Part shown: one piece after another, positions 11,919 through 15,833 of the stretch | Layout of the letters: the number at the start of each line of letters is the position of its first letter | Position numbering within the stretch: position 1 is the first letter of the stretch | From: a virus | Virus record (IMG/VR): IMGVR_UViG_3300019758_000005 | Coordinates: 1 to 40,672 of that record | DNA length: 40,672 nt | Reading direction: 5' to 3' (one strand) | Made by a program: the position numbers and the translations under genes | Notes under the pieces: model-generated | Seen by the model: only the letters and a program-made list of their open reading frames with translations | The model's database searches: none | What the model was told of the DNA's origin: nothing

Positions 11919-12348
11919 GACTAAAAAGCTAACCCAAAAGCAAGAGAATTTCGCCCGATTATTTGTTGAATTGGGCAATCAATCCGAAGCTTATAGGCAA
12001 GCATACGAAACAACAGCAGGCCATGAAACCGTTAATGTAAGCGCCTGCAAGCTACTTAAGAACGCTAACGTAGCCCAAAGGGTATCTGAGTTAAGAGAAA
12101 ACATAGCAATGAAGCATGAAGTCACCGTTGACAGCCTCCTGAAAGAGCTAGAAGAGGCGCGCACAATCGCATTGACCTGTGAGACACCTCAAAGCTCTGC
12201 GGCCATCTCAGCGACAATGGGGAAGGCTAAGTTGTGCGGGCTGGATAAGCAGATTATTGATCATACTAGCTCTGATGGTAGTATGAGTCCTAAAGCCGCA
12301 AGCGATGCAGTACTAGACGCGCTCAATAAAAAATATGACTCCGAGTGA
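11917..12348 (+). CDS. terS: Terminase small subunit
   Basis: KLTQKQENFARLFVELGNQSEAYRQAY fits the Terminase_2-type N-terminus, and the gene lies directly upstream of the large subunit. The start is uncertain (ATG 11917 or ATG 11890). Confidence 0.75.
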   Translation: MTKKLTQKQENFARLFVELGNQSEAYRQAYETTAGHETVNVSACKLLKNANVAQRVSELRENIAMKHEVTVDSLLKELEEARTIALTCETPQSSAAISATMGKAKLCGLDKQIIDHTSSDGSMSPKAASDAVLDALNKKYDSE

Positions 12349-13726
12349 AATAGCGGACAATCGAACCGATCTATTGACTTTTGTTAGAACCATGTTCAAA
12401 GCTCGAAAGGGCTTAGACTTGGTTGACAATTGGCATCAAGAGGCAATATGCCAGGCACTTGAAAAAGTAGTGCTAGGCAGAACTAAGCGCCTTATTATTA
12501 ATATCCCGCCTCGATCTGGCAAGACAGAGATAGCTGTAATTAATTATATAGCTTGGTGCATGGGCAACTTCCCAGACTCCGAGTTCATTCACGCATCCTA
12601 TTCAAAGCGCCTTGCAACCAGTAACGCCTATAATGTCCGCGCAATAATGCAGCATGAGAAGTTTACAGAGATATTCTCACACACTGAAATAAAAGCAGAC
12701 AGCTCAGCTAAAGACGAATTCAGAACGGCTCAGGGCGGCATTGTTTACGCAACCGGTGCAGACGGTACTATCACGGGTTATGGCGCAGGTAAGATGCGTG
12801 ATACGTTCGGCGGGGCTATTATCATAGATGACCCACATAAAGCAGGCGAGGCTAACAGCGACACTATGCGCCAGAACGTGCTTGATTGGTTTAGCACTAC
12901 GATGGAAAGCCGGAAGAATAAACCCGATACGCCTATCATCGTTATCATGCAGCGACTACATGAAGACGACCTGAGCGGTTTCCTATTAGCAGGTGGTAAC
13001 GGCGAAGAGTGGGAACACTTAAACATAAGTGCCGAGGTTGACGGCGAATCATTCTGGTCTCAACAGTTTCCATGGGAAGAATTAAAGCGTAAAGAAGCGG
13101 CTAACTCCTACGTTTATGCTGGCCAGTATTTACAACAACCTGCACCTATTGGCGGTGGCATATTCAAGGACGCATGGTGGCAGTATTACACTGTCAAGCC
13201 TCAATTCGAGTGGCGTGCAATCTATGCGGATACAGCGCAGAAAACAAAAGAGCATAATGACTTTTCAGTATTCCAATGCTGGGGCAAGACAAAAGATGGC
13301 AAGGCGTACTTGCTTGATATGATTCGTGGCAAGTGGGAAGCGCCTGAGCTATTACAGCAAGCCCGTGCATTCTGGTCTAAGCATAAGAATTCAACCGATA
13401 CCGGCGCACTTCGAGCTATGAAAATTGAGGACAAGGTGAGTGGTACAGGCTTGATACAAACGCTGGGGCGTGAAGGCGTCCAAGTGAAAGCGGTTCAGCG
13501 TAATACTGATAAGCTAACCAGGGCAATGGATGCAGCCCCTAGCGTGGAGGCTGGCTTTGTTTATATCAGCACTGATGTGCCTGATATTACTGATTTCTTA
13601 CGAGAACATAGTCAGTTCCCTAACAGCAAGCACGACGACACGGTAGATCCATGCGTCGATGCTGTCAGTGATATGTTAGTGACTGGCAAGCGAGTCGCCC
13701 CGATTGCGTTTAGTTGGGCGAATTAA
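12335..13726 (+). CDS. terL: Terminase large subunit
   Basis: 463 aa. Walker A PPRSGKTE, Walker B AIIIDDPHK, and a C-terminal nuclease acidic motif HDDTVDPCVDA. Confidence 0.9.
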   Translation: MTPSEIADNRTDLLTFVRTMFKARKGLDLVDNWHQEAICQALEKVVLGRTKRLIINIPPRSGKTEIAVINYIAWCMGNFPDSEFIHASYSKRLATSNAYNVRAIMQHEKFTEIFSHTEIKADSSAKDEFRTAQGGIVYATGADGTITGYGAGKMRDTFGGAIIIDDPHKAGEANSDTMRQNVLDWFSTTMESRKNKPDTPIIVIMQRLHEDDLSGFLLAGGNGEEWEHLNISAEVDGESFWSQQFPWEELKRKEAANSYVYAGQYLQQPAPIGGGIFKDAWWQYYTVKPQFEWRAIYADTAQKTKEHNDFSVFQCWGKTKDGKAYLLDMIRGKWEAPELLQQARAFWSKHKNSTDTGALRAMKIEDKVSGTGLIQTLGREGVQVKAVQRNTDKLTRAMDAAPSVEAGFVYISTDVPDITDFLREHSQFPNSKHDDTVDPCVDAVSDMLVTGKRVAPIAFSWAN

Positions 13727-13871
13727 ACAAAGGCCGCAATACCCGCCCATCATGCCACTCGCAGCCATACTCAAGCCAGCGCACTACCTGCGTGCGACTA
13801 ACTCCTATTGAGCGGGCAAACTTTGATACGTTGCCCGCGTGGTTTTGGGTTATGTGCTGGGATAGGGTCAT
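13710..13871 (-). CDS. Small Cro/YdaS-like HTH protein (53 aa, below the track cutoff)
   Basis: Hand translation: MTLSQHITQNHAGNVSKFARSIGVSRTQVVRWLEYGCEWHDGRVLRPLFNSPN. Its ATG immediately follows the upstream stop (TAAATG). Its 3' end overlaps the terL 3' end by 17 nt. Confidence 0.6.
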   Translation of the reverse strand: MTLSQHITQNHAGNVSKFARSIGVSRTQVVRWLEYGCEWHDGRVLRPLFNSPN

Positions 13872-14123
13872 TTAATAACCACCTAATTTTTTGGCTTGCT
13901 TGTATTGAGATGTAACTCTGTTTACGTCTCGCCTAGCAGAGCAGGATTTACAACAGTCGCCAAGTCCATGCAATTGCTCTTTTGTGCATTTGCATTTTTC
14001 TCTTGCATCTAACACCATTTTTTGTGTTATTAATGAGCTGTAGTGCTTTAAAGTTAAAAGCTCTTGACTGTAGTGATCGGCATCGTTATCAAGCTTTACG
14101 CTTCCGATAAAATGAAAGGCCAT
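13872..14123 (-). CDS. Cys-rich small protein (83 aa), unknown function
   Basis: Track ORF containing KCKCTKEQLHGLGDCCKSC. Its start overlaps the upstream stop (TAATG). Confidence 0.55.
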   Translation of the reverse strand: MAFHFIGSVKLDNDADHYSQELLTLKHYSSLITQKMVLDAREKCKCTKEQLHGLGDCCKSCSARRDVNRVTSQYKQAKKLGGY

Positions 14124-14290
14124 TATCGGCCAACCATTTTGCTATGTTCTTCGTAAGCTTTCTGCCCTTCCAGTAGATCATTAAATGCATCTACAAGATT
14201 CTGGTTTGGATTGGTATTCCTAACCAAGGCCAGTGCGTTAATATAATCTTGCTCGAAAGGTGTTTTGTTTTTTGGTAGGTTGTTGTTCAT
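14123..14290 (-). CDS. Small hypothetical protein (55 aa, below the track cutoff)
   Basis: Hand translation: MNNNLPKNKTPFEQDYINALALVRNTNPNQNLVDAFNDLLEGQKAYEEHSKMVGR. A strong RBS (AGGAGG) lies 6 nt upstream. Confidence 0.55.
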   Translation of the reverse strand: MNNNLPKNKTPFEQDYINALALVRNTNPNQNLVDAFNDLLEGQKAYEEHSKMVGR

Positions 14291-14334
14291 GTTGTGCCTC
14301 CTAGGCGTTTTGTTTGTTTCGTTTCGATGTAGTA

Positions 14335-14362
14335 ATAATACAATACTGTGTTATTTATACAA
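14335..14362 (-). promoter_or_regulatory. Candidate promoter of the minus-strand cassette (TTGTAT-N16-TATTAT)
   Basis: On the minus strand the -35 is at 14362-14357 and the -10 at 14340-14335. The -35 overlaps the TATTTATACA box at 14352-14361. Confidence 0.4.
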
Positions 14363-14423
14363 GCATTAATTTCAATTTATTTTGGTATGTTACAATTAAC
14401 CCAATTATCTACAGGGCCAACTA

Positions 14424-15833
14424 ATGAGCGTTTCCACTACACATCCGAACTATAATGATTTCGTGCCAATCTGGAAGCGCACCGGCGATTGCGCAGAGGG
14501 CGAGCCTCGCATCAAAGCTGGCGGGGCATTCTACCTGCCTGCTGAATTCTCTAATGATACAGAGCGCTTTAACTACTATTTACAACGCGCCTATTTCCTT
14601 GGTGCGACTAAACAAGCCCTAGCCTCAATCGTGGGCATGGTCATGCGTAAGCCTGGTGAAGTTGAATTGCCGCCACGCCTTGAAGAGCTATCCGAGAATA
14701 TAGACGGTTCCGAGCGTTCTATTAATCAGATGGCGAAGTATTCAGTGACTGAGGTAGGCATTAAAGGCCGCATTGGCTATCTTGCGGACTATCCGCCGGC
14801 ACCCGAGGGCATTAGCAAAGAACAGCAGCGCTTAGGTGGCTATCGTCCGTATATGAAAGCTTATACGGCTGAATCCATTATCAATTGGCGCGAAGAGGTC
14901 ATCAATGGCCGTAATATGCTAACAATGGTTGTGCTTAAAGAACAGGTAGAAGACAACGATCTAGACGAGTTCGCCCACAAATTTGAAGATCAATATCGAG
15001 TATTACGCCTGCGTGATGGCGTTTACACTCAACAGCTATACGATAAAGACGGCACGGCAGGCGAGGAGCTGGTAGTGCGCCAAGGCGGTAAGCCGATGGA
15101 TCACATTCCCTTCTATTTCGCAGGTGCTGAAAATAATCAGCCTGATTGCGATATGCCTTTGATGTATGAGATTGCCACGCTTGATTTGGCTTACTACCAG
15201 ACAACTGCTGACCATCGTGAGAACTTGCACCAGCAGGGGCAGATTACCGTAGGCGTGGCCACAGAATACGATCCAGAAGTATGGAAAGAAGCCAACCCTA
15301 GTGGTTTCAAAGTTGGCGCTCGCACAGTTACAAATCTTGGCCCAGGGGGTTCATTCTCGTCTGTGTCAGTGCCGCCAATTACTGGCATTAGTAACGAACT
15401 TGACTACCTAAAGCAGACCATTATCGGCGCAGGTGGTAAGATCATCCAGAAGAGTGGTCAAGCTGAAACAGCAGAAGCTACTCGTATTAATGCCAGCGCT
15501 CAAAACAGTATGCTTGAAACGATGGTTGATAATATCTCAGAGGCCATGCGCTTATGTTTGAAGGAATTAGCCGCATTCATGGGTGAAACTGGCGAAGTGG
15601 TATTTGAGCTAAACAAAGACTTCTTTGATGACTCACTCGATGCAAACGTGATCAACGCAGTAACAAGTATGCAAGCCGCTGGCGTTATTGCTAAGCGCGA
15701 CACTCGTTACATGTTACGTCAAGGCCGTATTGCAATCGAGGAGGGGCGCACGGATGAAGATATTGATCTTGATATTGCCAGTGAGGTTGCACTACCTGAT
15801 GAACCTTCCGAGGCTTCTGCACCGCTAGAATAG
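14424..15833 (+). CDS. Portal protein (DUF4055-like N-terminus)
   Basis: 469 aa in the position after the terminase genes. The N-terminal YNDFVPIWKRTGDCAEGEPRIK..YLP pattern is recalled from DUF4055-type portals. Confidence 0.7.
   Translation: MSVSTTHPNYNDFVPIWKRTGDCAEGEPRIKAGGAFYLPAEFSNDTERFNYYLQRAYFLGATKQALASIVGMVMRKPGEVELPPRLEELSENIDGSERSINQMAKYSVTEVGIKGRIGYLADYPPAPEGISKEQQRLGGYRPYMKAYTAESIINWREEVINGRNMLTMVVLKEQVEDNDLDEFAHKFEDQYRVLRLRDGVYTQQLYDKDGTAGEELVVRQGGKPMDHIPFYFAGAENNQPDCDMPLMYEIATLDLAYYQTTADHRENLHQQGQITVGVATEYDPEVWKEANPSGFKVGARTVTNLGPGGSFSSVSVPPITGISNELDYLKQTIIGAGGKIIQKSGQAETAEATRINASAQNSMLETMVDNISEAMRLCLKELAAFMGETGEVVFELNKDFFDDSLDANVINAVTSMQAAGVIAKRDTRYMLRQGRIAIEEGRTDEDIDLDIASEVALPDEPSEASAPLE

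Follow-up and report, generated by a model that had tools for sequence, protein, structure and literature searches.

A probable autoregulated accessory-gene cassette with an acr-aca-like layout between terL and the portal gene of an uncultured phage

The DNA examined here, hereafter the window, is a 40,672-nt sequence (IMG/VR record IMGVR_UViG_3300019758_000005) that makes up nearly the entire length of a 40.69-kb metagenomic viral contig. Between its terL gene, for the large terminase subunit (plus strand, 12335-13726), and its portal gene (DUF4055; plus strand, 14424-15833, with the ATG at 14424) lies a minus-strand cassette of three small open reading frames (ORFs), designated orfA, orfB and orfC, the last of which codes for a predicted helix-turn-helix (HTH) protein. 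Comparison with six related loci showed that the HTH gene and a promoter/leader block remain nearly constant while the accompanying small genes are exchanged, and the locus is probably an autoregulated accessory cassette. With somewhat less assurance, we favor reading it as a self-contained, portable unit for accessory-gene expression, autorepressed, acting early and organized like the anti-CRISPR (acr) and anti-CRISPR-associated (aca) operons.

Layout and coding status of the cassette

Gene orfA (minus strand, 14290-14123) codes for a soluble orphan cargo protein of 55 aa with an isoelectric point (pI) of 5.6; orfB (minus strand, 14123-13872) for a basic orphan cargo protein of 83 aa with an invariant CxC-x10-CCxxC cluster; and orfC (minus strand, 13871-13710) for a 53-aa mini-HTH protein, the predicted autorepressor of the cassette promoter. 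These are the coupled minus-strand ORFs of 55, 83 and 53 aa that the original prediction, made from the sequence alone, had placed between terL and portal, and their coordinates were verified, as were the junctions TAATG (14125-14121) and TAAATG (13874-13869) and the 17-nt overlap between the 3′ ends of orfC and terL. The AGGAGG ribosome binding site (RBS) assigned to orfA is present at 14302-14297, with the ATG six nt further on, and belongs to an A/C-rich leader (minus strand, 14291-14325) that can form a weak 4-bp hairpin over it.

The claim that these ORFs represent real genes hinged on their conservation as coding sequence in relatives, and this was borne out by ratios of nonsynonymous to synonymous substitution rates (dN/dS) of 0.06-0.5 across all three. 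Against orthologs in other contigs, dN/dS was 0.23-0.5 for orfA and 0.06-0.28 for orfC, and orfB showed a dN of 0.17 with saturated dS; between the window and L004 or L008 (see below), synonymous sites were near or at saturation (dS 0.5 to >1.5, dN 0.1-0.3). Since dS is near or beyond saturation while dN stays low, orfA, orfB and orfC evolve as genuine genes, beyond chance ORFs. The G+C content over orfA and orfB is 0.39, versus about 0.48-0.50 in the flanks. A terminator scan of the window detected no minus-strand terminator 3′ of orfC, so that cassette transcripts would run antisense into terL.

Other features were observed within and around these genes. A hairpin, GGCC-gataat-GGCC, with a T-rich run after it (minus strand, 14118-14131) straddles the TAATG of the orfA stop and orfB start; it is called as terminator-like, is kept in L009, and could modulate translational coupling or attenuate expression of orfB and orfC. 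On the plus strand, that of the late genes, the complement of the RBS hairpin and the ensuing TTTGTTTGTT (14294-14308) score as intrinsic-terminator-like; this site, situated between terL and portal, occurs only with the orfA/orfB type of cargo and might make transcription that reads through from terL pause or terminate ahead of the portal gene. The publicly annotated version of the contig that contains the window has orfA and orfB as genes but lacks the HTH ORF, evidently because it overlaps terL; protein databases therefore probably list fewer members of the mini-HTH family than exist.

Constant anchors and exchanged cargo in seven loci

Related loci were gathered from the contigs of protein-cluster members, and then by probing with the 21-mer of the promoter and the HTH profile. 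In a database of 5.8 billion proteins, orfA is represented by one cluster (its own), and orfB and orfC by two each. Seven independent loci resulted: the window, L004, L006/L007, L008, L009, L010 and L013. All seven have two anchors in common, the promoter/leader block and a 53-55-aa HTH protein that is 77-96 % identical among them. No match to the HTH profile or the promoter 21-mer was found in JGI metagenome contigs. The sole match to the 21-mer in GTDB genomes, L011 from a Roseiflexaceae metagenome-assembled genome, lies inside a gene for an 1822-aa repeat protein and was rejected as a chance occurrence.

The genes between and around the anchors vary widely. Upstream of the HTH gene, the window, L004 and L009 carry genes for proteins of 55 and 83 aa; downstream of it there is none in the window, one of 70 aa in L004 and a different one, also of 70 aa, in L009. 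The upstream position is occupied by a single 49-aa gene in L006/L007 and by genes of 53, 58 and 49 aa in L010, both with none downstream, and by genes of 60 and about 54 aa in L013, which also has genes of 95, 71, 75 and 42 aa downstream. In L008, genes of 77, 71 and 71 aa precede the HTH gene, which is the last of the operon, and more same-strand small genes follow beyond an 85-nt gap. Thus, at least five cargo sets, mutually unrelated by BLASTP, accompany the near-constant HTH protein. The proposed terminal position of the HTH gene holds in the window, L006, L010 and L008, but not in L004, L009 and L013, with their small genes downstream.

The window, L004, L006/L007, L010 and L013 have their cassettes between terL and portal; those of L008 and L009 lie elsewhere, and there a terminator hairpin, not a portal gene, precedes the promoter block. 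Because these two copies are situated away from the terL-portal junction, the cassette behaves as a portable transcription unit. Positions 1-350 of L008, upstream of its cassette, are free of ORFs, contain the T-arm-like motifs GGTTCGAATCC and GGTTCAACTCC, and end in a strong terminator hairpin; neither a tRNA nor an Rfam element was found in these 350 nt with ARAGORN and Rfam.

A near-invariant block with a predicted promoter and a candidate operator

The promoter proposed for the cassette, TTGTAT-N16-TATTAT (minus strand, 14335-14362), is present at the stated position but was not called by a simple sigma-70 scan, because its -35 matches the consensus at 3/6 positions. We infer its reality from conservation. 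The promoter lies inside a 44-nt block (14362-14319) that is one base apart from full identity across six loci. The TTG of the -35 (14362-14360) is invariant in 7/7 loci (alignment A5), the full hexamer reading TTGCAT in 5/6 related loci and TTGCTT in L013. Equally invariant are a 25-nt core, CACAGTATTGTATTATTACTACATC (minus strand, 14326-14350), comprising the inner operator, the -10 and the start-site region, and, upstream of the -35, the A/T-rich AAAATAAAT (minus strand, 14375-14383), which may function as an UP element. In pairs of loci sharing this block, third-codon identity of the HTH gene is 45-87 %, with dS up to >1. The near-identity of the block while third-codon positions of the HTH gene diverge argues that it is under direct selection at the nucleotide level.

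The spacer and the -10 hexamer of the promoter are covered by a 22-bp quasi-palindrome of 9-4-9 structure, AATAACACA-gtat-TGTATTATT (14334-14355), whose arms are 8/9 complementary and which we consider the candidate operator. Its position matches the published rule that Aca operators (inverted repeat 1, IR1) lie within the core promoter (PMC9410906). The pattern wATAAnnnA-N3-4-TnnnTTATw has a single match in the window, the candidate operator itself, and no second copy of the promoter 21-mer exists in the window, even allowing three mismatches. Covariation between the recognition helix and the operator was uninformative, as the seven loci hardly differ in helix 3. In L008 (400-443), an inverted second copy (AATGATACAAAACTGT, 14/16) of the operator's right half (ACAGTATTGTATTATT) lies on the far side of the -35, which suggests a second, locus-specific binding site. 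A structured leader RNA, such as the untranslated region (UTR) of Aca2, was also considered and found unsupported: folding of the leader was not significant (minimum free energy -4.4 kcal/mol, z -1.4) and Rfam gave no match.

Distant members of the HTH family from cultured phages show a comparable arrangement. Erwinia phage Midgardsormr38 has genes ORF85 (68 aa) and ORF84 (HTH), antiparallel and between Q and the holin gene, and its ORF84 is a true member of the mini-HTH family (hhalign 98.5 %). The Q-holin slot also holds a 63-aa gene and the HTH gene in Cronobacter phage ENT47670, and genes for 159 aa, the HTH and 207 aa, antiparallel, in Providencia phage PSTNGR2lys. In Yersinia phage fHe-Yen8-01 the order 162 aa, HTH and 186 aa occurs in a row of same-strand genes, and in the early region of Klebsiella phage LASTA the HTH gene is followed by that of a Rha-like protein. 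A palindrome with ATAA...TTAT arms is found just upstream in 4/5 of these operons: perfect 9-3-9 palindromes in Midgardsormr38 (TATAAACCA-ttt-TGGTTTATA) and fHe-Yen8-01 (TATAATCAA-tat-TTGATTATA), both placed at the spacer/-10 of a TTGCA-type promoter, ATAAACC-ttttt-GGTTTAT in ENT47670, and two tandem copies of ATAAAG-N7-CTTTAT in PSTNGR2lys; the region upstream of the LASTA HTH gene yielded no repeat. This family-wide occurrence of a palindrome at the promoter is the strongest in-silico support for the predicted autorepression.

The modules of fHe-Yen8-01 (L017 2011-3218) and PSTNGR2lys (L018 2022-3281) resemble each other in their three genes of similar size with overlapping stops and starts, ordered as about 160 aa, mini-HTH and about 190-207 aa. 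The partners of the HTH protein in both had no match in Pfam or PADLOC, and the two modules may constitute a distinct conserved system under the same HTH family.

The mini-HTH protein and its family

The structure of the orfC product modeled with AlphaFold2 (AF2) contains helices at residues 3-10, 12-22 and 26-35 plus a beta-hairpin, with a predicted local distance difference test (pLDDT) score of 70, and residues 11-34 gave sub-threshold matches to HTH_8, YdaS and HTH_29. Sequence and model thus point to a small DNA-binding protein, as Aca regulators are. The original prediction called it a Cro/YdaS-like HTH; the HTH stands as a predicted fold, but the Cro/YdaS label does not follow from Pfam scores that are by themselves sub-threshold (YdaS_toxin, 16.9 bits versus a gathering threshold of 30; P22_Cro, 13.8 versus 30.2). 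A match to YdaS at E<0.01 was obtained with 6/28 family members.

At E<=1e-3, a HMMER search of 1.84 billion representatives retrieved 126 clusters forming the mini-HTH family, mostly stand-alone proteins of 50-70 aa with the signature MxLxxHIxxxHxGNxSxFARSxGVxxxQVxRWLxxGCxWxxGxV. Of the two HTH profiles used, narrow (A3) and broad (A7), the broader one has the same HTH core as orfC. No model in Pfam or NCBIfam covers the family, the only matches being sub-threshold ones to YdaS, HTH and Cro; neither A3 nor A7 matched any solved structure in PDB, Aca chains included; and Foldseek searches of the orfC model against PDB and BFVD returned only non-significant, generic HTH matches (Aca1 7vjm, E=8). 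The proposed search of the HTH protein against known Aca families was, therefore, negative for the solved Aca chains in PDB, Pfam and NCBIfam. Family members P0012 (272 aa), P0014 (264 aa), P0038 and P0048 have three or four tandem copies of the mini-HTH domain, a whole-domain architecture that is unusual for an HTH the size of Cro. Member P0026 had no match in the phage collection.

The cargo proteins

Orthologs of the orfA product are 96 % (L009) and 56 % (L004) identical to it. No family in Pfam or PHROG matched any cargo protein, PDB sequences and PADLOC models gave no match for orfA and orfB, and orfB had no match in IMG/VR. The cargo proteins lack transmembrane (TM)-like segments and their pI values are mixed, from 4.2 to 10. 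The cysteine cluster anticipated in orfB is present, and its five cysteines (C44, C46, C57, C58 and C61) are kept without change in all three homologs known; the AF2 model of this protein was unreliable (pLDDT 57). A motif C-x-S-C-x-A-R-x-D-V is common to orfB (13935-13960) and an unrelated 71-aa cargo protein of L008 (720-935), both with an upstream pair of cysteines (BLASTP E=0.04), and it may be a Zn-binding knuckle, either distantly related or convergent.

The phage genome and the terL-portal junction

The window carries genes for a Prim-Pol primase, a Sak4-like annealase, a single-stranded DNA-binding protein (SSB), a RecE-like exonuclease and a helicase, and its structural genes form a long plus-strand block. 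Neither an integrase nor a CI-type repressor was found among the window ORFs listed or scanned. At the nucleotide level, neither the junction nor the cassette matched any relative in the deposited phage collection. The closest match to the portal protein is from Oceanospirillum phage GJ44 (36 %), and TerL is ~70 % identical to those of Pseudomonas phage MR14, Yersinia phage fEV-1 and Pseudoalteromonas phages PHS21 and SL25.

The comparison of relatives at this junction that the original prediction called for showed the insert to be absent, replaced by other ORFs, or present with different cargo, in line with what is expected for an accessory region (bioRxiv 10.1101/2023.04.06.535777). In fEV-1 and PHS21, terL directly adjoins the portal gene, and in Idiomarinaceae phage 1N2-2 the junction is occupied by three unrelated small ORFs on the plus strand (L003 1911-2484). 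Since 1N2-2 shares the TerL type alone and has its own small ORFs there, the junction seems to be a preferred site for accessory genes in unrelated portal lineages.

On the terL side, the boundary of the cassette is the conserved end of terL, the last ~34 nt (…VAPIAFSWAN*; plus strand, 13693-13726): homology with L006 and L010 spans orfC and these nucleotides and ends at about 13692. The remainder of TerL differs in family, being of Terminase_6 type in the window and Terminase_3 in the relatives. This appears as a non-orthologous replacement of TerL among otherwise syntenic relatives (463 aa, Terminase_6 type, in the window versus 408-417 aa, Terminase_3 types), as seen by comparing window positions 12290-13726 with L010 4085-5338 and L013 4757-6010. 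The replaced segment starts in the last ~18 residues of the small terminase subunit, TerS, whose tail thus changes along with the type of TerL, and extends to ~12 codons short of the terL stop codon, leaving a chimeric TerL that retains the …VAPIAFSWAN end overlapping orfC.

Proposed mechanism and alternative explanations

In the mechanism that we propose, a host-type (sigma-70-like) promoter with its A/T-rich upstream element would fire when the DNA enters the cell, driving a short operon for small soluble cargo proteins and the 53-aa HTH protein. As the HTH protein accumulated, its dimer would bind the 22-bp quasi-palindrome spanning spacer and -10 and switch off the operon that encodes it; this would limit the dosage of the cargo and keep antisense or head-on transcription from interfering with terL and the late operon, into which an operon devoid of terminator runs head-on, so that shut-off would matter. 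The near-invariant promoter/leader and, at the opposite end, the HTH gene with the terL end could serve as homology arms, and the cargo genes would be exchanged between phages by recombination at these conserved arms. The timing and strength of the promoter, the binding and repression by the HTH protein and the function of the cargo are putative throughout.

Several observations weigh against this interpretation. The HTH fold was modeled with medium confidence and structural searches had no significant match; the -35 is weak and a consensus sigma-70 scan misses the promoter; the quasi-palindrome is only modestly unusual, with as good a one in 2.6 % of block shuffles and nine such 22-mers in the window, and its outer left arm is degraded in L013. 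Additionally, the HTH gene is not always terminal in the operon, only seven loci were found among billions of sequences, and no cargo protein, with their mixed pI values, resembles a known anti-defence protein.

The acr-aca-like layout claimed by the original prediction has been substantiated, with a conserved HTH and promoter anchor, unrelated small genes exchanged next to it, and a candidate inverted-repeat operator in the core promoter. The anti-CRISPR or anti-defence function attributed to the cargo is still putative, given the lack of matches for any cargo in Pfam or PHROG, for orfA and orfB in PDB or PADLOC, and for the HTH protein among solved Aca chains and curated families. Early counter-defence or host take-over factors are the most likely identity of the cargo; that it is specifically anti-defence we propose tentatively, as somewhat short of an even chance. 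Wholesale cargo turnover between close relatives favors genes engaged in an arms race.

The same regulatory logic could instead serve host take-over or fitness factors, such as metabolic modifiers or proteins that inhibit transcription, replication or division in the host, a possibility to which we give less credit than to anti-defence genes yet far more than to any of the others. All cargo proteins are orphans devoid of an anti-defence signature, their pI values are mixed with several basic proteins, the cysteine cluster of orfB suggests binding of Zn or nucleic acids, and the partners in the wider family are larger (about 160-207 aa) and equally orphan, all of which would suit such factors; nevertheless, conserved take-over functions usually stay within a phage lineage, and rapid, wholesale replacement of cargo among close relatives is the pattern most often tied to arms-race genes.

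Autoregulated palindromic operators are typical also of type II toxin-antitoxin (TA) loci. A module for TA, abortive infection or superinfection exclusion, with the HTH protein as antitoxin or regulator and a neighbor as toxin or exclusion factor, would accordingly fit such an operator, as well as the weak, sub-threshold similarity of some family members to YdaS_toxin and the location of the Midgardsormr38 and PSTNGR2lys cassettes in the lambdoid Q-holin slot for morons. We nonetheless deem it improbable, because the partner genes do not co-vary with the HTH gene: they change completely while the HTH protein is 77-96 % identical, and no conserved toxin partner co-varying with it, as a cognate toxin would, was found among the seven loci. 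Moreover, the model suggests that 53 aa leave no space for a toxin-binding domain besides the HTH, PADLOC was blank, the cargo lacks the TM segments expected of membrane exclusion proteins, and the window ORFs give no sign of lysogeny.

It is no more credible that orfC codes for a general phage regulator, either a Cro-like switch or a regulator of a divergent portal or late promoter, with incidental neighbors. The cassette promoter does lie within a 133-nt divergent region shared with the portal start, the portal-proximal intergenic part is conserved in all the terL-portal loci, and P22_Cro and YdaS give sub-threshold matches. Yet the promoter-HTH unit occurs in L008 and L009 away from any portal gene, close TerL relatives do without the insert, and neither CI partner nor integrase was found among the window ORFs listed or scanned; furthermore, the operator motif occurs once in the 40.7-kb genome, which argues that there is no regulon. 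A role as a general lysis/lysogeny regulator, which the original prediction held would undo it, is thus disfavored. Finally, conservation of the invariant block as coding sequence, on the strand of the portal gene, for a small hydrophobic peptide (14314-14424, ...FRFDVVIIQYCVIY...), instead of as promoter and operator, can practically be dismissed: an open stretch with VVIIQYC does exist on that strand in 7/7 loci, but its length (26-59 codons), ends and start vary by locus and it is cut short in L009, every wobble position is kept while nearby real genes show dS >1, and the distance from the block to the first cargo ORF, downstream of it, is the same at every locus.

Returning to the autorepressed accessory cassette, its extended form is that the mini-HTH family is an unrecognized Aca-like family of regulators and the near-invariant 44-nt block a portable expression dock, with conserved ends acting as recombination arms for swapping counter-defence genes between phages that are otherwise unrelated, which we regard as speculative and rather unlikely. 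If true, roughly 15 orphan proteins beside the mini-HTH would represent anti-defence families that are new, with many more to be mined by means of the anchor. Guilt by association with a regulator has been more productive than any other approach in uncovering new anti-CRISPR and anti-defence proteins, and the locus provides a new anchor, a 53-aa HTH protein with a well-defined promoter/operator and without counterpart in Pfam, NCBIfam or PDB, to which about 15 orphan cargo proteins are attached, in an uncultured phage lineage without known anti-defence biology. The locus also illustrates clearly how cargo is exchanged in nature between regulatory arms that stay fixed, and shows a putative autorepressor positioned where uncontrolled transcription would collide with packaging and the late operon. 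Should the cargo not be anti-defence, what is left would be an ordinary accessory region of a phage, albeit one with clear limits.

Comparison with known systems

The acr-aca operons, such as those of Aca1 from Pseudomonas phage JBD30 and Aca2 from Pectobacterium phage ZF40, within the series Aca1-Aca14, have a small HTH regulator after small, unrelated and fast-evolving genes, as here. They also have a strong early promoter (PMC9410906, PMC13551039), and promoter activity is predicted for the cassette from its sequence; an inverted repeat inside the core promoter, the place taken here by the 9-4-9 quasi-palindrome; a regulator acting as the conserved anchor of varying partners, which is paralleled by the constant HTH protein and its cargo sets; and insertion within a morphogenesis module. 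The rationale for repression, to avoid harmful read-through, is likewise shared (PMC9410906, PMC13551039). In contrast, none of the partners found here is a known Acr or associated with a validated one (Pfam and PHROG; PDB for orfA and orfB), and no sequence relation of the mini-HTH protein to Aca1-Aca14 was found among solved Aca chains, Pfam and NCBIfam (PMC13551039). The cassette is, moreover, antiparallel to terL and overlaps its 3′ end, may carry extra cargo downstream of the HTH gene, and has no detectable structured motif in its 5′ UTR. As to membership of an Aca family and anti-defence function, our analysis would place the cassette as Aca-like by layout, with an HTH protein that matched none of the solved Aca chains and cargo whose anti-defence role is putative.

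With the mini-HTH proteins of Cro/YdaS type (PF14549, PF15943), orfC shares a size of about 50-65 aa and a predicted three-helix HTH with a beta-hairpin. It differs in scoring below the gathering thresholds, in having its own family signature, and in the absence of a CI partner or immunity region: its neighbors are terL and portal, and no CI was found among the window ORFs listed or scanned.

The morons in the Q-holin region of lambdoid phages are similar in that the mini-HTH cassettes of Midgardsormr38, ENT47670 and PSTNGR2lys have their own promoter and are antiparallel to the late operon. However, no lysogeny genes were seen in the window phage, so that the rationale usually given for morons, expression in the prophage state, is not applicable to it.

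Phage accessory regions consist of hypervariable small genes between conserved core genes (Silas et al., bioRxiv 10.1101/2023.04.06.535777), and the variable small genes between terL and portal, with a G+C content below that of the flanks, conform to this description. The cassette differs from them in possessing its own near-invariant promoter, candidate operator and regulator, and in occurring, in L008 and L009, as a unit also outside the terL-portal slot.

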